In this document: one piece after another, positions 603 to 18,125 of the stretch | Layout: each line of letters opens with the position of its first letter | How positions within the stretch are numbered: position 1 is the stretch's first letter | Origin: a virus | Lineage: Duplodnaviria > Heunggongvirae > Uroviricota > Caudoviricetes | Direction: 5' to 3' (one strand) | IMG/VR virus record: IMGVR_UViG_3300045988_003495 | Length of the DNA stretch: 64,000 nt | Program-made: the position numbers and the translations under genes | The notes under the pieces: generated by a model | What the model was told of the DNA's origin: nothing | Databases searched by the model: none | Seen by the model: only the letters and a program-made list of their open reading frames with translations

Positions 603-2747
603 ATGAACAAAGTACAGATTATTAAAAAGAATGGCTCACTTGAAGAACCTGATATCAAAAAAGTTTTAGCAGCAGTCACAAAGTCAGCTAACAGAGTTGG
701 TTATAAAGAGCTTCCACCAGATGTTACTCAAGCTCTTGAGTCAGCATTTATGAGGATTCTGGTAAAGTCCACTAAGCAGAATAATTTGCTAATTTCGGTA
801 AATGATATTCACAGTATTGTTGAGGGTGCTTTGGCAGAAGTCAATCACGAGATTTATGAGTCTTACTCAACATACAGAAATTACCGTAAAGAGGTTGCTC
901 AAAATTGGGATGAACTCTACCAGAAGACTAAGGATACCCTCTTCTTAGGTGACCGTGAAAATGCTAACTTTGACAGCAGTTTAATTTCTACGAAAGGTTC
1001 AATTATCCGTGGTTACCTGACTAAAGAAATCTTTAAACAGTATCATCTAACACCAGAGGAACTTGAAGCCATTGAGAAAGGCTTTATCTATATCCACGAT
1101 TTGAGAGACCTGATTTTTGGTGGTATTAACTGTTGCCTGTTTGACATTGGTAAAGTACTAAAAGGTGGCTTTGAAATGTCCGGCATTGAGTACTGTGAAC
1201 CTAAATCTGTACTGTCAGCGTTGCAGGTTATTGGTGACGTAGTACTTTCAGCAACTGCACAGCAATTTGGTGGTTTTACTTTAGCAGAGATTGATAAGGT
1301 ACTTGTACCGTATGCTAAGAAGTCTCTACGCTATCATGCTGAGAAAGCATCATCTTATGGTATTCCTAAAGAGCATTACCACAATTATGTAATGGAGCAG
1401 TTACAAATTGAACTGACTCAAGGTTTTCAGTCACTTGAGATGAAACTAAATACCGTACCTTGTAGCCGTGGTGATTTTGCATTCACAACTTTAACATTTG
1501 GTTTACTTGACTCAGATATGTCTAATGAGGATAATCGACTACAATACATGATTGCAAGTACTCTCCTAGATGTTCGTATGAATGGACAAGGTAAGAGCAA
1601 AAAACCTGTTGTATTCCCTAAACTGGTTTATATTTATGACCAGAAGAGACATGATGAAAATATCTGTCAAGGTCACCTGTACAGTAAAGCCATCGAGTGT
1701 TGCTCTAAAGCAATGTACCCAGATTTCTTAAGTGTGTCTGGTCATGGTGCTGTAGCAGAGGCTTTTGAGCGTTCTGGTAAGGTAATTTCACCGATGGGTT
1801 GCAGAGCCTTCTTATCTCCATATTTTAATGAGGATGGGAAAGAGTTTTACGTTGGTCGTGCTAACATTGGTGCTGTATCTTTGAACTTACCTATGATTTA
1901 TCAGTACGCCAAAGAGAATGGTTTAGATTTCTGGAAAGAGCTTGATAAGTACCTAGAGATGATTCGCAGCTTCCACAAGAAACGCTACGAAATGATTGCT
2001 AATATGCCAGCAAGTTCTAACCCTCTCGCATTCACACAGGGTGGTCTGTACAAAGGGAATAAGAAACCTACTGATAAGGTTGGCTGGGATATCGTGAAGT
2101 CCTTCACAGCTTCTTTTGGGGTTACTGCGCTTGATGAATTATCTGTTCTTGCTGAAGGTAAACGACTTCATGAAGTTGGAAGTTGTAGTTTTGCATACGA
2201 TGTTCTGGAATACATCAACATGAAAACTGAAGAGTTTAAAAATGAAGATGGTTTCTTATATGCAGTCTATGGCACTCCAGCAGAATCACTTTGTGGAACT
2301 CAGCTAAAACAGTTCAGAGATATGTTTGGAGTTATCAAAGGTGTTTCTGATAAGGAATACTTTACAAACAGCTTCCATATGAATGTTGCAGCAGACATCA
2401 CACCATTTGAGAAGCAGGACTTAGAAGAACCTTTCTTCCATATCTGTAGAGGTGGCAGAATCCAGTATGTAAGGGTAGCTAATCCAGAAAACTTACCAGC
2501 ACTTAAAAGCTGTATTACCAGAGGGATGTTGAAGGGTTTTTATCAGGGGCTTAACTTTGACTTAGCAATCTGTGAACATTGTGGTAACAGACCAAAGGCT
2601 GATGTTGAAGAATGTGAGGTTTGCCATTCACACGACATCTCTGTGATTAACAGGGTGTGCGGGTACTTGTCATTCACAAAAATTAAAGGTCAGTCTCGAA
2701 TGAATGACGCTAAGATGGCAGAAATCAAGGATAGGGTTTCTATGTAG
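603..2747 (+). CDS. nrdD: anaerobic ribonucleoside-triphosphate reductase (class III RNR)
   Basis: 714 aa; C-terminal glycyl-radical motif RVCGYLS preceded by Cys cluster CEHCGN...CEVCHS; RBS aggggcaataATG. Confidence 0.85.
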   Translation: MNKVQIIKKNGSLEEPDIKKVLAAVTKSANRVGYKELPPDVTQALESAFMRILVKSTKQNNLLISVNDIHSIVEGALAEVNHEIYESYSTYRNYRKEVAQNWDELYQKTKDTLFLGDRENANFDSSLISTKGSIIRGYLTKEIFKQYHLTPEELEAIEKGFIYIHDLRDLIFGGINCCLFDIGKVLKGGFEMSGIEYCEPKSVLSALQVIGDVVLSATAQQFGGFTLAEIDKVLVPYAKKSLRYHAEKASSYGIPKEHYHNYVMEQLQIELTQGFQSLEMKLNTVPCSRGDFAFTTLTFGLLDSDMSNEDNRLQYMIASTLLDVRMNGQGKSKKPVVFPKLVYIYDQKRHDENICQGHLYSKAIECCSKAMYPDFLSVSGHGAVAEAFERSGKVISPMGCRAFLSPYFNEDGKEFYVGRANIGAVSLNLPMIYQYAKENGLDFWKELDKYLEMIRSFHKKRYEMIANMPASSNPLAFTQGGLYKGNKKPTDKVGWDIVKSFTASFGVTALDELSVLAEGKRLHEVGSCSFAYDVLEYINMKTEEFKNEDGFLYAVYGTPAESLCGTQLKQFRDMFGVIKGVSDKEYFTNSFHMNVAADITPFEKQDLEEPFFHICRGGRIQYVRVANPENLPALKSCITRGMLKGFYQGLNFDLAICEHCGNRPKADVEECEVCHSHDISVINRVCGYLSFTKIKGQSRMNDAKMAEIKDRVSM

Positions 2748-2754
2748 CATACAA

Positions 2755-3312
2755 ATGAATTACGAACTGATATATAATGCAATTATTAAGAAGGCACATT
2801 CTGAAAGGGGTGTGCCTCTTACATACTACAAATGTCAAGGTAAGGGTTATGAAAGACACCATATCATACCAGTATGTCTAGGTGGCGATAAAATTAGTGG
2901 AGATAATATTGCTTTACTTACACCTAGAGAGCATTATATAGCTCATAAATTACTGGTTAAGATGTATCCAAACAATCATAAGTTATGGTTTGCATGGAAC
3001 AGGTTAGCTCATGATGGCCTAGATAGGAAAATATCATCCAGAGACTATGAAAAGGTAAGGGCTTTGAACTCGAAAGCTCTATCTATTGTGAATAAAGGTA
3101 GGGTTTTCACTGAAGAACATCGAAGACGATTAGGAGAATCTCAAATAGGCAATACAAAATCAAAAGGTTGTAAAAGGTCTATAGAAACAAGGAAGAAGAT
3201 GTCAGAAGCCGGAAAAAAGCCAAAGAAAAAGAAAACTTGCCCTCATTGTGGTATGACTGGTGGTGCTGGTAACATGACTCGATACCATTTTGACAATTGT
3301 AAGGAAAAATAA
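2755..3312 (+). CDS. HNH homing endonuclease (free-standing)
   Basis: ERHHIIPVCLGGDKISGDNIALLTPREHYIAHK HNH-type motif; basic C-terminal tail ending in CPHCG. ORF track start 2704 overlaps nrdD; in-frame ATG at 2755 just after the nrdD stop is the likelier start. Confidence 0.6.
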   Translation: MNYELIYNAIIKKAHSERGVPLTYYKCQGKGYERHHIIPVCLGGDKISGDNIALLTPREHYIAHKLLVKMYPNNHKLWFAWNRLAHDGLDRKISSRDYEKVRALNSKALSIVNKGRVFTEEHRRRLGESQIGNTKSKGCKRSIETRKKMSEAGKKPKKKKTCPHCGMTGGAGNMTRYHFDNCKEK

Positions 3313-5491: not shown

Positions 5492-5803
5492 ATGGAAAAG
5501 ATTTATAACACCCGTAAAATTCAGATTTCTATTCTGTGTCAGTTTATGGCTGATAAACACAATTCACATTATTGTGGCACAGGTTTCCTTACTCTTGGTG
5601 GCGGTTACATTAGCTTCAAAGAGGCTGTAAAGATGTACAATGAGCACCCTGAAGATGATAAAGAGCTTAAGCAGCTTAAACTTTCTTATGATAAGAAACG
5701 TAAGAAAATAATCTGCTTGAACAACCTTATCAAGCCAACTGAAAAGGTCTATGATGCAATTGGTGAAGAAGGTTTCTTCAAAGTATTGAAATTAGTTCAG
5801 TAA
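5492..5803 (+). CDS. hypothetical protein
   Basis: 103 aa ORF; hairpin plus T-run follows at 5818-5845. Confidence 0.4.
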   Translation: MEKIYNTRKIQISILCQFMADKHNSHYCGTGFLTLGGGYISFKEAVKMYNEHPEDDKELKQLKLSYDKKRKKIICLNNLIKPTEKVYDAIGEEGFFKVLKLVQ

Positions 5804-5817
5804 GAGTCTATGATTAG

Positions 5818-5845
5818 GGAACTGTAAAGGTTCCCTTTTTATTTT
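5818..5845 (+). terminator. intrinsic terminator
   Basis: gggaac-tgtaaag-gttccc stem-loop followed by tttttatttt. Confidence 0.55.
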
Positions 5846-5854
5846 GGAGATAAA

Positions 5855-6370
5855 ATGTATCTGTCAAACCTGAAACGTTCGGCTGCAATGTCAGTGTTAA
5901 GACTCAGCTTTGAGGAACGTCAAGAGTTCATTGACTCCCACCAATACGACCCCTCAAACTCCAATCACATGATTCTCTGGAATCGTGAGAGTACTCGTGA
6001 AAGAGTATTATTCCGATATTACCCATACTACACCATAGACAACCTGTATGAATGTTTTGTTGTGAAGAACACCATTACAGTACTTAATAAACTTTGCAGA
6101 TACACAGGTAGTCAATCCTTCACATTAGGTCACCACAAGCCTGTTACAAAAGGTGGTGAACATCACTGCGCAAACTGGTTTATCCAAACTAAAGCTGATA
6201 ACCAGAAGCAAGAAGATAGCCTTCTAAGCACTCCTAAGATGACCTATGAAGAGCAAGAGAGATATATCAAAAATAATATGCCAGATGTGCTTGACAACAA
6301 CTATACAGATTTGGCAATATCTCTCCTGTTGAAGTTTGAGACAGTTTATAGGGCAACTTACAATGGCTAA
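5855..6370 (+). CDS. hypothetical protein with possible HNH-like motif
   Basis: 171 aa; GHHKPVTKGGEHHCANW resembles an HNH core but is not conclusive by eye. Confidence 0.35.
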   Translation: MYLSNLKRSAAMSVLRLSFEERQEFIDSHQYDPSNSNHMILWNRESTRERVLFRYYPYYTIDNLYECFVVKNTITVLNKLCRYTGSQSFTLGHHKPVTKGGEHHCANWFIQTKADNQKQEDSLLSTPKMTYEEQERYIKNNMPDVLDNNYTDLAISLLLKFETVYRATYNG

Positions 6371-6641
6371 AGAGAAGTGGGAGATTCTACCATTAGTGAG
6401 TGAAGGTGGTAACGGCTGTGAGATGTACATGATACGTGGTCATGTCCCAGAACCAATTGCACTTGAGATGGTAAACAATTTTACAGATGGCTCTTACAAA
6501 GATTTAGGAGAGCCAACTATAAAGCATCAATGGGTCAAACCTGTACCAGACAGCACAGGTAACTGTAGTGTACTTTATCACGTTGTAGACCCTGCAAAAT
6601 GCAAATCTGCAATGGCAGTAACAAACATAACCTTTGATTGA
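6363..6641 (+). CDS. hypothetical protein
   Basis: ORF track 6336-6641; ATG at 6363 (MAKEKWEIL) avoids most overlap with the upstream gene. Confidence 0.3.
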   Translation: MAKEKWEILPLVSEGGNGCEMYMIRGHVPEPIALEMVNNFTDGSYKDLGEPTIKHQWVKPVPDSTGNCSVLYHVVDPAKCKSAMAVTNITFD

Positions 6642-6656
6642 TAGAGAGAGAAAACT

Positions 6657-7538
6657 ATGAAAACATCTATCCGTGTTACAGTTCATTCACCAACTAAAGG
6701 GACTCATGAAGAAGAGTTTAACATCATCCAATTTCCTTCTGGTGAGATTGGTGGACACTTTTCGCCAGAGTTTGTTGATTTCACTGCTTATGCAGCATCA
6801 TCCATCAACAATGTGATTATGATTGTAAAAGGTTATGACAAGGACACATTGTTTGCTGTGGCACTTGCTAAAGAAGCAATTGATGATTTAATTCCTCATG
6901 ATTATGCTTTAAAGACTGTCATCTTTTACTACTTACCAAATGCACGATATGACCGTCACATGTTTAAAGGCGACGCAGCAGCTTTAAAGGTTTTTGCTAA
7001 ACAGGTAAATGCAATGGGATTTGGTGCAGTCTGTGCAGTTGACCCTCACAGTTACGTTCCAGATAACCTGTTTAACTGCTTCCAGAGTATTCCTCAAAAG
7101 GAGATTGCAGTCCACTATGCAAATGACCCACTGGTTGATTACTTAGTAGCCCCAGATGCAGGTGCTGCTAAGAAGGTTGCAGAGACCGCTAAAGAGGCGG
7201 ATAAACCATATATCACAATGTCTAAGGTGCGTAACCTTAAGACTGGTGAAATTACTGGTATGCGAATCCTTGATGATGTTGATTTGACAGATAAAACCGT
7301 CATGATTCTGGATGATATCTGTGATGGTGGTCGAACCTTCATAGAAGCAGCTAGACATCTTCGTGAAGCAGGTGCAAAACGTGTGGAACTCTATGTAACA
7401 CATGGTATCTTCTCTAAAGATGTTGAAAACCTTCTTGACAATGGCATTGACCACATCTACACTACAAACTCTTTAGGGGAAGCTAAAGACCGTGGCTTAA
7501 CACATTATGGTCAAGTTACTGTAGCAAATTTGGATTAG
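6657..7538 (+). CDS. prs: ribose-phosphate pyrophosphokinase (Prs) homologue; candidate ADP-ribose pyrophosphokinase
   Basis: 293 aa; phosphoribosyltransferase-type PRPP-binding loop (VMILDDICDGGRTF); RBS gagagagaaaactATG. Confidence 0.75.
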   Translation: MKTSIRVTVHSPTKGTHEEEFNIIQFPSGEIGGHFSPEFVDFTAYAASSINNVIMIVKGYDKDTLFAVALAKEAIDDLIPHDYALKTVIFYYLPNARYDRHMFKGDAAALKVFAKQVNAMGFGAVCAVDPHSYVPDNLFNCFQSIPQKEIAVHYANDPLVDYLVAPDAGAAKKVAETAKEADKPYITMSKVRNLKTGEITGMRILDDVDLTDKTVMILDDICDGGRTFIEAARHLREAGAKRVELYVTHGIFSKDVENLLDNGIDHIYTTNSLGEAKDRGLTHYGQVTVANLD

Positions 7539-7546
7539 GTATTAAA

Positions 7547-8038
7547 ATGGATAAGGGTTACTTCGAAAAATACCTAATATACGAACCGGAGACAGGTTTA
7601 CTAATTTGGAAAGTAACCCTTTGCAATACCGCTATTGCTGGTAATGTTGCTGGCACAAGGTCTAAGAAGGGTTATATCCAAGTCCAGATAAATAAGAAGA
7701 GGTACTATGCACATAATATTGCATGGATTATGTCTGGAGGTGAGATACCAAGTGGATATGAGATAGACCACATAGACCTTGATAAATCTAATAATAAGTT
7801 GGAGAATTTAAGACTTAGCACAAAGTCACAAAATCAGAGGAATAGGGGTATATACAAGAATAATAAAACTGGTGTGAAGGGTGTAAGTTTTTGTAAACAA
7901 ACAGGTCTTTACAAAGCAAGAGTCATGCTTTACCATAAAGAATACTTTTGTGGAAGATTTAAAACGGTAGAAGAAGCAAAAGAAGCTGTAATTAAAAAGC
8001 GAATAGAACTTCATGGTGAGTTTGCAAGACATAACTAA
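7547..8038 (+). CDS. HNH homing endonuclease with AP2-like DNA-binding domain
   Basis: 163 aa; HNH_3-type core (YYAHNIAWIMSGGEIPSGYEIDHIDLDKSNNKLENLR) followed by AP2-like segment (GVKGVSFCKQTGLYKARV...GRFKTVEEA). Confidence 0.6.
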   Translation: MDKGYFEKYLIYEPETGLLIWKVTLCNTAIAGNVAGTRSKKGYIQVQINKKRYYAHNIAWIMSGGEIPSGYEIDHIDLDKSNNKLENLRLSTKSQNQRNRGIYKNNKTGVKGVSFCKQTGLYKARVMLYHKEYFCGRFKTVEEAKEAVIKKRIELHGEFARHN

Positions 8039-8056
8039 GAGAGAGAGAGATAAAAT

Positions 8057-9838
8057 ATGAGTAAGTCACTTTACGCAGTACCAGCAGGTCTTAATGCAGA
8101 TGCTTACAAGGCATCACATATATATCAGTATCCAGATGCTACGCAATATCTTATGTTGAACCTGACACCACGTAGCGACAAATGGTTTAACAGTCCATTA
8201 GCAATTGATGGTGTAGTCGCTTTTGGTATTCAACGTTTCGTTAAAGATTACTTGATAGACCACTGGAACGCCACTTTCTTTGAACGTGATAAAAAAGAAG
8301 CCATTGATGAAATCTTAGAAGTCATGAATGGTGTTCTGGGTAAAGATGCTATCGGTCGAGAGCATTGGGAAGCACTTCACGACTTAGGTTATCTACCAGT
8401 TGAAGTATACGCTGTAGAAGAAGGCACAGTTGTCCCTATGCGTGTCCCAATGATTGTCTTCCAGAACACTGTTTCAGGTTTCCATTGGGTAGCAGGTTAT
8501 CTGGAAGATGCTTTCTCTGCTGAGATTTGGAAGGCTTGCACTATTGCAACTATTGCATTGCATTACAAACGCATCTGTAAGAAGTGGGCTGACCTTACTT
8601 GTGACAACGACTTGCATCTGCCCTATCAGTGCCATGACTTTGCTATGCGTGGTATGTCAGGCTTTACTGATGACGCATTTAATGCTGTAGGTCACTTAAC
8701 CAGCTTTAAAGGAACTGACAGCTTCCCTGCTGTATACACGGCTAAACGCATCTATGGGCAGTCTTACCCAATCTCTGATATTGGTAGTTCTGTACCAGCC
8801 ACTGAACACTCTGTAATGTGTGCAAACATTGCTTGGGAAGGTGGTAATGAATTGATTGAAGATGAAAGACGCTTTAAAGGTGAGTTACAAACCTTCCGTC
8901 GTTTTTTAACAGAAACTTACCCAACTGGTATTGCAAGTATTGTTTCAGATACTTATAACTTCTGGAGAACTGTGTCAGAAATCTTACCAGCACTCCGTAA
9001 AGAAATTATGGAACGTGATGGCAAACTGGTAATTCGCCCTGACTCTGGAGACCCTGTACATATTGTCACAGGTTATAAAGCAATCCACTTAGAATGTGCT
9101 AAGAAGGCTTATTATGAGCACCTTAGTAAGCTGGAAGCCAGCGACACAATGTTGAATGCTGTTCTGAATATGAAGCTTGAAAACATCAGCTATGGTATTG
9201 CTGGATGGCTACTGTCAGAAGGCTACGAAATGGTTGTTGACAGAGAAGACTTTGAAGTTGCTGATACAGTGATGTTGAAGAACGCTTATATGGTTGGTTC
9301 TGCAAACGTTGTAACACGCCCTGTAGCAGAGATTGATGGGGCTATTAAGACCCTGTATAACATCTTCGGAGGGACTATCAACTCCAAAGGCTTTAAGGTA
9401 CTGGATGAGCATATCGGGCTTATCTATGGCGACTCTATCACGCTGGAACGTGCAAACGAAATCCTGAAGCGTCTGTATGAAATGGGTTTTGCAAGCTCTA
9501 ACGTAGTGTTTGGTGTAGGCTCTTACACTTACCAGTACATGACTCGTGACACCTTTGCATTTGCTGTCAAAGCAACTCTTGCAAGCATTGGTGGTAAAGA
9601 GATTATGCTTGCAAAAGACCCTAAAACAGATAGTGGTGTTAAGAAATCTGCCTTTGGTGGTGTAGCACCTATGTGGGATGGTGATAAGCTGAAAGCTGTA
9701 GATGGCTATGGATTCCAGAGCTTTGCAGATGCACTTGAACATCCAGCTTGTGCTCTACGCTTAGTCTTTAGTGATTCTGAGCAGTATGGTTACACATCTC
9801 TTGGTGATATTCGAAATAATATTGACAAGCAGCTTTAA
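8057..9838 (+). CDS. nadV: nicotinamide phosphoribosyltransferase (NadV/NAMPT) homologue
   Basis: 593 aa; N-terminal region and central motifs look NAMPT-like (HDFAMRGMSGFTDD, GTDSFPA), read by eye without a search. Confidence 0.75.
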   Translation: MSKSLYAVPAGLNADAYKASHIYQYPDATQYLMLNLTPRSDKWFNSPLAIDGVVAFGIQRFVKDYLIDHWNATFFERDKKEAIDEILEVMNGVLGKDAIGREHWEALHDLGYLPVEVYAVEEGTVVPMRVPMIVFQNTVSGFHWVAGYLEDAFSAEIWKACTIATIALHYKRICKKWADLTCDNDLHLPYQCHDFAMRGMSGFTDDAFNAVGHLTSFKGTDSFPAVYTAKRIYGQSYPISDIGSSVPATEHSVMCANIAWEGGNELIEDERRFKGELQTFRRFLTETYPTGIASIVSDTYNFWRTVSEILPALRKEIMERDGKLVIRPDSGDPVHIVTGYKAIHLECAKKAYYEHLSKLEASDTMLNAVLNMKLENISYGIAGWLLSEGYEMVVDREDFEVADTVMLKNAYMVGSANVVTRPVAEIDGAIKTLYNIFGGTINSKGFKVLDEHIGLIYGDSITLERANEILKRLYEMGFASSNVVFGVGSYTYQYMTRDTFAFAVKATLASIGGKEIMLAKDPKTDSGVKKSAFGGVAPMWDGDKLKAVDGYGFQSFADALEHPACALRLVFSDSEQYGYTSLGDIRNNIDKQL

Positions 9839-9852
9839 AAGTATATGATAAG

Positions 9853-9875
9853 AGGCTCCTACGGGAGCCTTTTTA
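9853..9875 (+). terminator. intrinsic terminator
   Basis: ggctcc-tacg-ggagcc followed by ttttt, just after the nadV-like gene. Confidence 0.6.
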
Positions 9876-9891
9876 ATTTCTGGAGAAGACT

Positions 9892-10227
9892 ATGAAAATC
9901 AAAGAAATGAACATCAACATTGTCTTAGAAGAACGTTGGGAGAACATCAAGAAGTCTGAAGATGGTCATAAGTTCCTCAACAAAATTTTAGTAGCAGCTA
10001 AAGAAGAACTGACTGGAAAGGTTGCAGCAGCAATCACAATAAAGGTTTGTGTAAAAGGTCTTCCACAACATCACCAGTTTGCTCTTGACGAGTTTAAAGA
10101 AAGCTTCTACAATCCAAACAAACAGATGCTTGAAAGTAACTTTGCAGTATCTACAAGCATCGTTCATGACAGAAGCTTTATCCTTTACAAAAACATGAGA
10201 GGTGAGTCATGCAAGCATATTGGATAG
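9892..10227 (+). CDS. hypothetical protein
   Basis: 111 aa ORF. Confidence 0.4.
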   Translation: MKIKEMNINIVLEERWENIKKSEDGHKFLNKILVAAKEELTGKVAAAITIKVCVKGLPQHHQFALDEFKESFYNPNKQMLESNFAVSTSIVHDRSFILYKNMRGESCKHIG

Positions 10228-15301: not shown

Positions 15302-15766
15302 ATGAACAATATCATTACGGTAGCACTGGACGATACGGTAAACAAATCTGCAATAGTTCGTAAAATGATTCAAGGTAACTTTGAAGGTAAAATTTTTCGT
15401 GCTGTTAATGTAAAAGCTGATGGCAGCATTCGTGAATATCGTGCATTATTGAATGTTAAAAAACACGTAAAAGGTGCTGGTTCAACTACTGCACACAAAG
15501 AAAACCTGATGACTATCTATGATATGGGCAAGGCTTCAGAGTTAGGTGCTGAAGGTATCGTTAAAGAAGGTGCTCCGTATCGCTCTTTCAATCTGGAAAC
15601 TACTCTTATGCTTTCCTTTACAAGTGGTTCTAAAACAATCACTTATCTCTTTACTGATGCTGCAACGGTATCTGCTATTAAGGATAGCACTGTCAAAGCT
15701 GGCGTAGTTGCTGCTGCAAAAGCTTCTTCGATGGCTGCGAATATCCTTGCTAAAGTCCTCGGTTAA
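15302..15766 (+). CDS. hypothetical protein
   Basis: 154 aa; followed by a strong terminator. Confidence 0.45.
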   Translation: MNNIITVALDDTVNKSAIVRKMIQGNFEGKIFRAVNVKADGSIREYRALLNVKKHVKGAGSTTAHKENLMTIYDMGKASELGAEGIVKEGAPYRSFNLETTLMLSFTSGSKTITYLFTDAATVSAIKDSTVKAGVVAAAKASSMAANILAKVLG

Positions 15767-17339: not shown

Positions 17340-18125
17340 ATGGGTATTGTAAAAATCATCAAAGGTGATATCTTTGACGCCTTTGATAAAGGTAAGTTTG
17401 ACATCATTGGTCATGGTTGTAACTGTATGAATTTAATGGGTGCAGGTATTGCAGCAACTATTTCTAAGCGTTATCCAAAAGTGTATGATACTGACACAGA
17501 AGTTTACCTGTTTGCAGGTGGCATTCGTCACAAACCCTGTGAAAATTTACTAGGTAATTTCTCTGTAGCACGTTTAAAACAAGGCCGTATAGCTAACCTT
17601 TACACCCAACTTCATACTGGTAAAGATGCCCGATACAGTGCTTTAGAGTCATCCTTGAAACAGCTTAACAGATACTGTGAAGTTAACCAGTTGAAGAAAG
17701 TTGGTCTACCTATGATTGGTGCAGGTATCGGTGGACTTGACCCTCAAGCTGTCACAGTTATCATTAATCAGGTGATGAAGAGTGTAGATGTTTATCTGTA
17801 TGTCTATGAAGCAAAAATGTATAATGAGTTACACTCAGGTTGGAAAAACTACTGTGAACCAGAATACTTTGCAGGTGTAGTTGTGTTCACAGATAACGCA
17901 GTTACCCTCTTCAGACGAAGAAAAGGTAAGATACATCAAAGTAACCCTCCGGTTGAAAAGATGTCTCTAAGTAACGCTCTAGTTACCCACCTGTCGAAGA
18001 GCAATCACAGAATTGCAGTAACATTTGGCAGTGATGCAGATGCTTATATCTATGCAAGAACTGATGAGGATATTGAGTTAATCCTCTCTTCACCAGAACT
18101 TACCTTCTTAGACGCAAAGAACTAA
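17340..18125 (+). CDS. macro-domain protein (ADP-ribose binding/processing) with C-terminal extension
   Basis: 261 aa; canonical macro signatures GDIFDAF...DIIGHGCNC and MGAGIAATIS in the N-terminal 60 aa. Confidence 0.7.
   Translation: MGIVKIIKGDIFDAFDKGKFDIIGHGCNCMNLMGAGIAATISKRYPKVYDTDTEVYLFAGGIRHKPCENLLGNFSVARLKQGRIANLYTQLHTGKDARYSALESSLKQLNRYCEVNQLKKVGLPMIGAGIGGLDPQAVTVIINQVMKSVDVYLYVYEAKMYNELHSGWKNYCEPEYFAGVVVFTDNAVTLFRRRKGKIHQSNPPVEKMSLSNALVTHLSKSNHRIAVTFGSDADAYIYARTDEDIELILSSPELTFLDAKN

Follow-up and report, generated by a model that had tools for sequence, protein, structure and literature searches.

Gene arrangement at the locus

Do two neighbouring phage genes that are named ribose-phosphate pyrophosphokinase (Prs) and nicotinamide phosphoribosyltransferase (NadV/Nampt) encode these housekeeping-type enzymes, or do they encode the anti-defence system NARP1, NAD+ reconstitution pathway 1, in which an ADP-ribose pyrophosphokinase (Adps) and a nicotinamide ADP-ribose transferase (Namat) rebuild NAD+? 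The question is raised by a stretch of 64,000 nt of phage DNA (the window), which belongs to the genus Felixounavirus and is matched by 258 phage records at up to 96%. A first-pass annotation had described a Prs-like and a Nampt-like gene on either side of an HNH gene; its coordinates turned out to be exact, and the profile matches of these genes lie far beyond chance. The Prs-like ORF matches phrog_619 'ribose-phosphate pyrophosphokinase' (E 1e-95), TIGR01251 (E 2.5e-35) and the Pfam families Pribosyltran (E 7e-12) and Pribosyl_synth (E 4e-10), with no Pfam match to Pribosyltran_N, and the Nampt-like ORF matches phrog_448 'nicotinamide phosphoribosyl transferase' (E 3e-202) as well as Pfam NAPRTase (E 5e-35) and NAMPT_N (E 9e-6). 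All three ORFs are intact and ATG-initiated (293, 163 and 593 aa) and are separated by spacers of 8 nt and 18 nt (Table 1). The two putative enzyme genes, hereafter adps and namat, are located on the same strand with only the 492-nt HNH ORF intervening, and in HNH-less relatives they are direct neighbours.

Table 1. Features of the NARP1-type locus and of an unlinked Macro-domain gene (positions refer to the window).
Feature	Position	Strand	Basis
Upstream boundary: promoter-like TTGAAA-17-TATGAT, directly followed by terminator-like hairpin AGGGAACTGTAAAGGTTCCCT and T-run	5786..5836	+	consensus scan
Conserved ORF of 171 aa, phrog_3500	5855..6370	+	E 5.5e-90; bas63_0077 orthologue
Conserved ORF of 92 aa, phrog_4726, directly 5' of adps	6363..6641	+	E 1e-59; bas63_0078 (92 aa) orthologue
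adps, ADP-ribose pyrophosphokinase (Prs superfamily), predicted first NARP1 enzyme	6657..7538	+	homology; GAGAGAGA-type RBS upstream
Codon of Lys190, predicted catalytic lysine of Adps, in loop KVRNLKTGEI	7224..7226	+	alignment to SPbetaL1 Lys162
Free-standing HNH (HNH_3, weak AP2) predicted homing-endonuclease gene in the adps-namat spacer	7547..8038	+	Pfam/PHROG
namat, nicotinamide ADP-ribose transferase (Nampt fold), predicted second NARP1 enzyme	8057..9838	+	homology, AF2 fold, contact residues
Lineage-specific insertion of ~85 residues in Namat, aa ~340-427	9074..9337	+	predicted small alpha/beta subdomain
Namat selectivity-clamp helix motif GSYTYQYMTRD, aa 488-498, aromatics Y490 and Y494	9518..9550	+	published consensus
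Downstream boundary: promoter-like TTGACA-16-TATGAT, then terminator-like hairpin AAGAGGCTCCTACGGGAGCCTTTT	9822..9873	+	consensus scan
Macro-domain 'phosphatase' of 261 aa, not linked to the module, candidate Adpp-like accessory	17340..18125	+	Pfam Macro, phrog_335

Regarding the boundaries of the module, the putative promoter and terminator sites on its two sides were assigned from their sequence, with RNA folds of -13.1 kcal/mol for the upstream hairpin and -16.6 kcal/mol for the downstream one. The genes of the module share GAGAGAGA-type RBS motifs and are tightly packed between these terminator-like hairpins, and adps, the HNH gene and namat are probably co-transcribed. The 171-aa ORF, which carries a weak HNH-like motif (phrog_2214 HNH, E 3e-4), is probably co-transcribed upstream of adps; we rejected it as a component of NARP1, since its Phapecoctavirus homologue does not adjoin NARP1. 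For the ORF between it and adps, the phrog_4726 match begins at residue 10 of a TTG-started reading frame (6336..6641).

The Prs-like protein

The window Adps falls far below every NCBIfam Prs equivalog cut-off (e.g. 103 vs 296 bits). It is 36% identical to the Adps of Bacillus phage SPbetaL1 (E 2e-28) and 37% identical to that of Vibrio phage Thalassa (E 8e-34), against 29% identity to E. coli Prs (E 2e-14). Lys190 in KVRNLKTGEI aligns with Lys162 in KQRNFHTGEI of SPbetaL1 Adps, the equivalent of B. subtilis Prs Lys197, and the K162A variant of SPbetaL1 Adps has served as an active-site-dead control. A loop of this type is common to the Adps proteins of SPbetaL1, FADO, Thalassa and Bas63, while E. 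coli Prs has DKRRPRAN. All 120 database matches listed for Adps are 185 to 310 aa long and come mostly from phage-sized contigs and in some cases from enterobacterial chromosomes; no canonical Prs of 315 aa was found among them. By these sequence features the protein is predicted to belong to the phage Adps group and not to housekeeping Prs.

The Nampt-like protein

In the case of Namat, overall similarity fails to separate it from Nampt, because the protein passes the NCBIfam 'nicotinate phosphoribosyltransferase' equivalog NF006629 (470.7 vs a cut-off of 405 bits), which is thus non-discriminating, and HdNadV, a true Nampt, is also fairly near (E 1.8e-105). Its best sequence match in the PDB is nevertheless SPbetaL1 Namat (9w5w/9w5x, E 1e-128, vs 1e-41 to 1e-51 for Nampt structures), and an AF2 model (pLDDT 92.5) has its top fold matches in the same two entries with a TM of 0.95, 9w5x giving the best fit. 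The contact residues of SPbetaL1 Namat for nicotinamide and NAD+ are all kept, barring the conservative exchanges F to Y, A to S and S to A (S190 to A196). The core is conserved as well (D15, Y17, F195, R198, D221, A248, the catalytic H251, R327, D329 and G458-D459), Arg327 being the equivalent of SPbetaL1 R306, and the equivalent of Asp308 is also present.

The assignment as Namat rests on orthology and on the selectivity clamp, for which the consensus GSX-Phi-X-Phi-X-Phi-TRD has been published (PMC12774641). The window motif carries aromatics at position 3 and position 7, the predicted adenine-stacking Y490 and Y494, and resembles GSFTYQYNTRD of SPbetaL1. True Nampts have non-aromatic residues at these positions, namely Q/R in HdNadV (GAQTYQRNTRD) and A/K in the Xcc Nampt (GGALLQKVDRD). 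The window has Tyr/Tyr like Namat, which speaks against a housekeeping Nampt/NadV. A third adenine-stacking residue would come from the selectivity-clamp loop (SCL), whose sequence PRSDKWFNSPL is the same in the window and in Bas63 Namat; for Bas63, stacking by the residue after the Lys was deduced from an AlphaFold3 model in the paper.

Orthology to the NARP1 operon of Bas63

Bas63 (Escherichia phage JohannRWettstein, MZ501086) belongs to the same genus as the window; NARP1 was first found in this phage, where a deletion was used to test it (Osterman et al., bioRxiv 10.1101/2024.02.11.579819). Its genes bas63_0079 (Adps) and bas63_0080 (Namat) have the same order, neighbours and lengths (293 and 593 aa) as their counterparts in the window. 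Namat is 97% identical over 593 aa, and this match takes in the 85-aa insertion as well as the SCL and SCH parts of the clamp. For Adps the identity is 78% over 293 aa, the C-terminal catalytic half being identical; the differing 22% of positions lie mostly in the N-terminal two-thirds, where the window adps represents another allele (DNA identity 65-77% at nt 6700-7150). Within the genus the window-type allele is more common, about 159 records having ≥80% protein identity, compared to 94 records in the 60-80% band to which the Bas63-type class (~78% to the window) belongs. The two operons also differ between the genes: in place of the HNH gene, the Bas63 spacer is 45 nt long and contains a hairpin (GGGGCTTGAAAGCCCC).

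SPbetaL1 Adps and Namat are more distant (36% and about 43-45% identity to the window) but have been characterised biochemically, with Namat crystal structures 9W5W and 9W5X (PMC12774641). The catalytic Lys of Adps, the ligand contacts and clamp motif of Namat and the overall fold (TM 0.95) are shared, whereas the window protein's insertions of ~85 aa and ~15 aa are missing from SPbetaL1 Namat, which has Arg40 as SCL stacking residue, where the window has Lys42-Trp43 of the Bas63 type.

Conversion of ADP-ribose and ATP to ADPR-pyrophosphate (ADPR-PP), and of ADPR-PP and nicotinamide to NAD+, is known for the SPbetaL1, DyoEdafos and P. foliorum enzymes and from infection metabolomics of Bas63, and protection against defence has been demonstrated for Bas63, FADO and engineered SBSphiJ. 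Bas63 without genes 79-80 is sensitive to SIR2-HerA and loses both NAD+ recovery and ADPR-PP, while the host genes pncC and nadR are dispensable for the wild-type phage (bioRxiv 10.1101/2024.02.11.579819). By analogy to these publications on Bas63 and SPbetaL1, the window phage would have the same enzymatic activities and anti-defence phenotype. A NADase effector of the host (SIR2, TIR or SEFIR type, in Thoeris, DSR1/2 or SIR2-HerA) would split NAD+ into ADP-ribose and nicotinamide; Adps would transfer pyrophosphate from ATP onto ADP-ribose, and in the Namat reaction nicotinamide would displace the pyrophosphate to give NAD+ directly, making NMN and an NMN adenylyltransferase (NMNAT) unnecessary.

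Search for an NMNAT or Nudix gene and alternative roles of the module

The first-pass annotation had seen no NMNAT in the window, which agrees with our Pfam scans: none of the 76 window ORFs matches CTP_transf_like/NMNAT, NadR or NUDIX. The search that it suggested beyond the window was extended to 10 ORFs of the relative vB_EcoM_D4 from the genome part outside the window, and likewise neither an NMNAT nor a Nudix gene turned up among these; a vB_EcoM_D4 gene labelled 'NAD synthetase' was identified as a SegE-type GIY-YIG protein and discarded. These results argue against NMN-based salvage (NARP2). The classical NadV-NMNAT pathway of the Vibrio phage KVP40 type has in common with the window a Nampt-fold enzyme using nicotinamide, but in the window this enzyme carries the clamp for ADPR-PP and is paired with Adps, not with an NMNAT.

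It could still be supposed that the pair is a canonical phage Prs, producing PRPP, and a NadV/Nampt, producing NMN, with the host NadR or PncC/NadD completing NAD+ as in auxiliary metabolic salvage. Database, Pfam and PHROG names say so, the NF006629 cut-off is passed, and Namat enzymes keep some PRPP-to-NMN activity in vitro, about half of that of human Nampt (PMC12774641). However, the adenine-clamp residues for ADPR-PP preference are present in place of the Q/R and A/K pairs of true Nampts, all Prs equivalog cut-offs are failed while the Adps-type loop is present, and no phage NMNAT occurs among the ORFs searched, so that we regard this explanation as very improbable. By eye the choice between NARP1 and true Prs/NadV had appeared undecidable; Bas63 orthology, the Namat clamp motif, the Adps loop and the NMNAT/Nudix search decide it for NARP1, as the first-pass annotation had suspected.

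A dual use of the module would leave NARP1 as the main role, with the residual Nampt activity of Namat on host PRPP also raising NMN and NAD+ during ordinary infection. This would explain the core-gene status of the module in the genus, where it is present in all 258 matching Felixounavirus-type records, and it would fit with the fully conserved catalytic core and the formation of NMN from PRPP by SPbetaL1 Namat in vitro. We nevertheless consider it unlikely: the NARP1 authors report no surplus NAD+ without prior NADase action, and neither the 76 window ORFs nor the 10 ORFs of vB_EcoM_D4 include a phage NMNAT to use the NMN. We are highly confident in identifying the locus as a Felixounavirus operon for NARP1 anti-defence, into whose spacer a selfish HNH gene has inserted.

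The HNH gene between adps and namat

The label 'HNH-AP2' given to the intervening gene is backed only partly: the HNH part is well founded (Pfam HNH_3, E 1.6e-19; phrog_99, E 3.5e-69), but the AP2 match is weak and below cut-off (E 4.7e-4, 20.8 vs 33.3 bits). The assumption that the gene is free-standing holds, as it proved to be a polymorphic insertion. Of 246 related phage records, 62 carry it at the same site, and it occurs as one copy within the window. Most of the other records, including Bas63, REP12 and Shy, are HNH-less with an adps-namat gap of about 45 nt. The insertion cleanly replaces about 30 nt of the spacer, thereby removing the small intergenic hairpin of HNH-less alleles, and substitutions are concentrated at both junctions, as expected of a homing site.

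Could the HNH protein contribute to the module as a third working part, e.g. as a regulator or a cooperating nuclease? It is tightly packed against both neighbours and occupies the slot in which accessory genes are found elsewhere (Macro in Thalassa, RyDEP in DyoEdafos). Yet about three quarters of the related genomes lack it, among them that of Bas63, whose operon works in experiments, its domains are of the homing-endonuclease type, and the clean spacer replacement with its junction substitutions looks like a homing site; such a role can practically be dismissed. Judged by its sequence, the gene is a selfish mobile insertion outside the NARP1 chemistry, coding for a predicted homing endonuclease.

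An unlinked Macro-domain gene

In NARP1-AP of the Vibrio phage Gary type, a Macro-domain ADPR-1''-phosphate phosphatase (Adpp) is encoded between Adps and Namat (bioRxiv 10.64898/2026.01.28.702374). The window has the same two core enzymes with HNH, not Macro, between them, and no Macro domain was found within two genes of adps and namat, where phrog_3500, phrog_4726, HNH, phrog_4262 and phrog_3931 are located. A conserved Macro protein of phrog_335 (E 5e-114; Pfam Macro E 1.1e-7, 32.2 vs a cut-off of 22 bits) is, however, encoded about 7.5 kb downstream of the module, past rIIA, rIIB and pnk, by the only Macro gene of the window, and phrog_335 proteins also occur in the Thalassa and PA10 operons. 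It is 31% identical to the Macro protein of Thalassa, which is encoded between Adps and Namat, and about 30% identical to that of Pseudomonas phage PA10, whose gene comes two after Namat. It has an extra C-terminal region of ~104 aa and is equally similar to Tk.4-type Macro proteins of T4-like phages. The protein could supply Adps with ADPR by acting on ADPR-1''-phosphate or on other derivatives of ADPR. We put forward only tentatively, as rather doubtful ideas, that Felixounaviruses run a dispersed NARP1-AP and, separately, that the Ounavirinae-specific insertion in Namat, for which no recognisable structural relative was found, adds a regulatory or interaction function.

Significance

The system is already known: the locus is the characterised NARP1 as carried by a phage of the Felix O1 type, so that the observation is correct but not new, and the interest first attached to it was set too high, the pathway having been first described in the same genus. 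NARP1 itself is an important recent discovery, in which viruses rebuild a metabolite destroyed by host immunity, and the window locus adds no new principle to it. Its practical value lies in annotation, as public records, including those of Felix O1 relatives for typing and therapy, still read 'ribose-phosphate pyrophosphokinase' and 'nicotinamide/nicotinate phosphoribosyltransferase'; simple discriminators are the clamp GS[YF]T[YF]Q[YF]xTRD and, for Adps, the loop K-x-R-[ND]-x-x-T-G-[ED]-I. The HNH polymorphism indicates that the operon tolerates an insertion where other phages place accessory enzymes. As a lead on aRES resistance of these phages, the unlinked Macro gene can be tested at little cost: if NARP1-AP were indeed dispersed, they would escape aRES-type defence as well, in a manner that the published search within two genes would miss.

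NARP1-like locus and its relatives in Felixounavirus

The first-pass annotation had described a Prs-like and a NadV-like gene with only an HNH gene between them, and the three ORFs were found at exactly these positions, in agreement with the profile searches (see table). According to the ORF listing the spacers adps-HNH and HNH-namat measure 8 and 18 nt. The label HNH-AP2 held for the HNH part (HNH_3, E 1.6e-19), while the AP2 part is a weak match under the Pfam cut-off.

Features of the putative NARP1 locus and its surroundings (window coordinates)
Feature	Position	Strand	Evidence
Upstream boundary	5786-5836		promoter-like site, then terminator-like hairpin
Conserved 171-aa ORF, phrog_3500	5855-6370	+	degenerate HNH-like stretch GHHKPVTKGGEHHCANW; phrog_2214 E 3e-4
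adps, Prs-superfamily ORF	6657-7538	+	293 aa, ATG start; phrog_619 E 1e-95, Pfam Pribosyltran + Pribosyl_synth, TIGR01251 E 2.5e-35
HNH_3 endonuclease ORF	7547-8038	+	163 aa, ATG start; HNH_3 E 1.6e-19, phrog_99 E 3.5e-69
namat, Nampt-family ORF	8057-9838	+	593 aa, ATG start; phrog_448 E 3e-202, Pfam NAPRTase + NAMPT_N
Downstream boundary	9822-9873		promoter-like site, then terminator-like hairpin
Macro-domain 'phosphatase', bas63_0095 orthologue	17340-18125	+	261 aa; Pfam E 1.1e-7, above cut-off; phrog_335

By megablast 258 records of the phage collection match the region 6400-9900 with up to 96% identity, nearly all of them Felixounavirus phages of Escherichia, Salmonella, Shigella and Citrobacter. 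Felix O1 shows the identical three-gene arrangement (93% identity). The first description of NARP1, the rebuilding of NAD+ from ADP-ribose and nicotinamide, started with an operon of two genes, 'Prs + Nampt', in the BASEL phage Bas63 or JohannRWettstein (genes 79-80; Osterman et al., bioRxiv 10.1101/2024.02.11.579819). Deletion of this operon raised the sensitivity of Bas63 to SIR2-HerA about 20-fold and blocked NAD+ recovery; host pncC and nadR were not required for the effect, and ADPR-pyrophosphate (ADPR-PP) was seen with wild-type Bas63 only (bioRxiv 10.1101/2024.02.11.579819). The purified enzymes of Bacillus phage SPbetaL1 were characterised in the same study, the Prs-like Adps pyrophosphorylating ADP-ribose and the Nampt-like Namat converting ADPR-PP and nicotinamide to NAD+ (bioRxiv 10.1101/2024.02.11.579819). 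Bas63 (MZ501086) is a Felixounavirus, and the products of its genes 79 and 80 (293 and 593 aa) equal the window proteins in length. Both phages have NrdG, small ORFs and the 171-aa and 92-aa ORFs as upstream neighbors, and rIIA, rIIB, pnk and a 'putative phosphatase' as downstream neighbors. Bas63 gp80 is 97% identical to the window Namat over the full length, gp79 78% identical to the window Adps with the differences mostly in the N-terminal two-thirds.

Distinction from Prs and Nampt

Whether the two proteins are true Prs/NadV or an ADPR-pyrophosphokinase/transferase pair had been left undecided from the sequence; orthology to Bas63 genes 79-80, the clamp motif of Namat and a loop of Adps favor the latter. 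For the alignment of both proteins the operons of SPbetaL1, FADO and Vibrio phage Thalassa were included. K190 of the window Adps is the counterpart of K162 in SPbetaL1 Adps, the catalytic lysine that was exchanged in the NARP1 study (bioRxiv 10.1101/2024.02.11.579819), and belongs to a loop, K-x-R-[ND]-x-x-T-G-[ED]-I, which is present in all five Adps compared and missing from E. coli Prs. The window Adps stayed under the cut-off of every NCBIfam Prs equivalog model, and a Pfam search found no Pribosyltran_N domain in it. With E-values of 2e-28 for SPbetaL1 Adps, 8e-34 for Thalassa Adps and 2e-14 for E. coli Prs, it is nearer to the two phage enzymes than to the E. coli one.

The distinction between Namat and Nampt, which have the catalytic core in common, is set out in a 2026 structural paper (PMC12774641). 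All contact residues of SPbetaL1 Namat have counterparts in the window protein, namely D15, Y17, F195, R198, D221, A248, the catalytic H251, R327, D329, G458-D459-S460, G488-S489-Y490, Y492, Y494 and T496-R497-D498. The clamp motif reads GSYTYQYMTRD in the window Namat versus GSFTYQYNTRD in SPbetaL1, and the same stretch in true Nampts reads GAQTYQRNTRD (Haemophilus ducreyi) and GGALLQKVDRD (Xanthomonas). The selectivity-clamp loop does not differ at all between the window and Bas63 Namat. An AlphaFold2 model (pLDDT 92.5) ranked the Namat crystal structures as the best fold match (TM 0.95), with HdNadV, the true Nampt of H. ducreyi, in second place and mammalian NAMPT after it. Overall similarity does not separate the two families cleanly, as HdNadV still matches the window protein with E 1.8e-105 and TM 0.93-0.94, and the window protein passes the NCBIfam phosphoribosyltransferase equivalog model. 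The Namat call therefore rests on the clamp motif and on orthology. Taken together, the locus is best read, by sequence comparison, as NARP1 (Adps and Namat) with a mobile HNH gene inserted between its two genes, which bears out the NAD+ reconstitution module proposed in the first-pass annotation.

Namats of the Ounavirinae type carry an insertion of 77-103 residues after the RPDSGDP strand (aa ~340-427 in the window Namat), for which the prediction, at high confidence, is a small alpha/beta unit. Bas63 Namat, whose operon is functional in vivo, has this insertion as well; the structural paper does not take it up (PMC12774641).

HNH gene and adps alleles

The HNH gene occupies the adps-namat site in 62 of the 246 related records that match 7300-8300, which bears out its description as free-standing, and most of the others, including Bas63, REP12 and Shy, have an adps-namat gap of ~45 nt. 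The cassette replaces ~30 nt of this spacer (window 7539-8056 versus REP12 1940-1984 and Bas63 15629-15673). The spacer without HNH gene forms a hairpin, GGGGCTT(A/G)AAAGCCCC followed by ATTTT (-11.5 to -12.6 kcal/mol), and the ribosome-binding motif of namat, GAGAGAGA, is kept in the HNH-bearing allele. Several substitutions are clustered at both cassette junctions, and no HNH paralogue was found elsewhere in the window at E < 1e-3. Presence and absence among relatives, the clean spacer replacement, the clustered substitutions and the missing paralogue make up the pattern of a free-standing homing endonuclease and not of a component of the pathway. As regards other genes, nrdD (window 603-3312) is a single uninterrupted ORF of 714 aa, whereas the Bas63 annotation gives nrdD in two joined segments that enclose a homing endonuclease gene, and one of 39 scanned ORFs gave a NUMOD3 match; both suggest further mobile-endonuclease polymorphism in the genome.

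DNA identity to Bas63 drops to 65-77% over 6700-7150, the N-terminal two-thirds of adps, compared to >90% in the flanks, a case of mosaicism. The window-type adps allele was found in ~159 records at ≥80% protein identity, while the 60-80% band contains 94 records, corresponding to the Bas63-type class (~78% shared with the window). By these counts the window-type allele is the commoner one in the genus, with both classes coexisting. The adps allele and the HNH gene are not simply linked by co-conversion, as REP12 and Shy are HNH-less yet carry the window-type allele (90-96% identity). In namat, identity over the first 150 nt is ~80% with Bas63 and Shy and 95% with REP12.

Transcription unit and search for further NAD+ genes

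Both boundaries of the locus look alike, each with a sigma-70-like promoter close to the consensus and, directly next to its -10 element, a GC-rich hairpin with T-run. We infer that ORF171, ORF92, adps, the HNH gene and namat, bracketed by these sites, form one transcription unit. All relatives checked have the 171-aa ORF, and it also occurs, far from NARP1, in ~150-kb Phapecoctavirus phages. A Pfam scan found no Macro or RyR domain in the 171-aa or 92-aa ORF, and with the 171-aa family being unlinked to NARP1 in Phapecoctavirus both were rejected as NARP1 accessories.

That no NMNAT is visible in the window was borne out by Pfam scans, in which none of 76 ORFs contained an NMNAT, NadR or NUDIX domain. 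Of a genome of roughly 87 kb about 64 kb lie in the window, and the annotated relative vB_EcoM_D4 stood in for the remainder; 10 unannotated or suspicious ORFs from that part were equally negative for these three domains. Since neither set contained such a domain, NARP2-type salvage, which proceeds via NMN by Nampt and NMNAT, is unsupported. One candidate for a small NMNAT, annotated as 'NAD synthetase' in vB_EcoM_D4 (PP886228, 23352-23849), was rejected as a SegE-like GIY-YIG endonuclease (Pfam E 9e-28). This public label is misleading in an NAD-related setting.

Macro-domain gene and bacterial homologues

A 2026 preprint shows some NARP1 operons to contain Adpp, a Macro-domain ADPR-1''-phosphate phosphatase which enables NARP1 to overcome aRES defence; in that study Macro genes were counted only if within two genes of NARP1, and its data cover neither Bas63 nor any other Felixounavirus (10.64898/2026.01.28.702374). 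The Macro gene of the window lies 7.5 kb from NARP1, a distance also kept in Erwinia Kolesnikvirus, and its product has an additional C-terminal region of ~104 aa. The Macro domain shares 31% identity with the Thalassa protein encoded between Adps and Namat, and the window protein ~30% with that of Pseudomonas phage PA10, encoded two genes after Namat; these two come from NARP1-AP-type operons, and all three share PHROG 335. In the PDB the window protein comes closest to macrodomains of the OARD1/TARG1 type. It is equally similar to the Tk.4-type Macro proteins of T4-like phages, which are not known to have NARP1. From these comparisons we rate a dispersed NARP1-AP (NARP1 plus Adpp), with the Macro gene apart from the pair, as possible only.

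Close homologues of Adps and Namat, with the Namat-type motif, were found in chromosomes of Cronobacter, Klebsiella, Kluyvera and Kosakonia. The chromosomal homologues read or listed include Namat-like sequences of 495-496 aa from Klebsiella, Kosakonia and Erwinia chromosomes (P0066, P0071, P0103) and Adps-like sequences of 283-285 aa from Cronobacter (P0187-P0194); all three chromosomal Namat-like sequences read contain GS[FY]TYQYNTRD. These homologues are NARP1-like pairs of bacteria under the annotation of ordinary phosphoribosyltransferases, in agreement with the bacterial NARP1 already reported (PMC12774641). As an orthologue of the operon from which NARP1 was discovered, the phage locus is already known, and its value lies in the correction of its annotation and in two side leads, the Macro gene and the Namat insertion.
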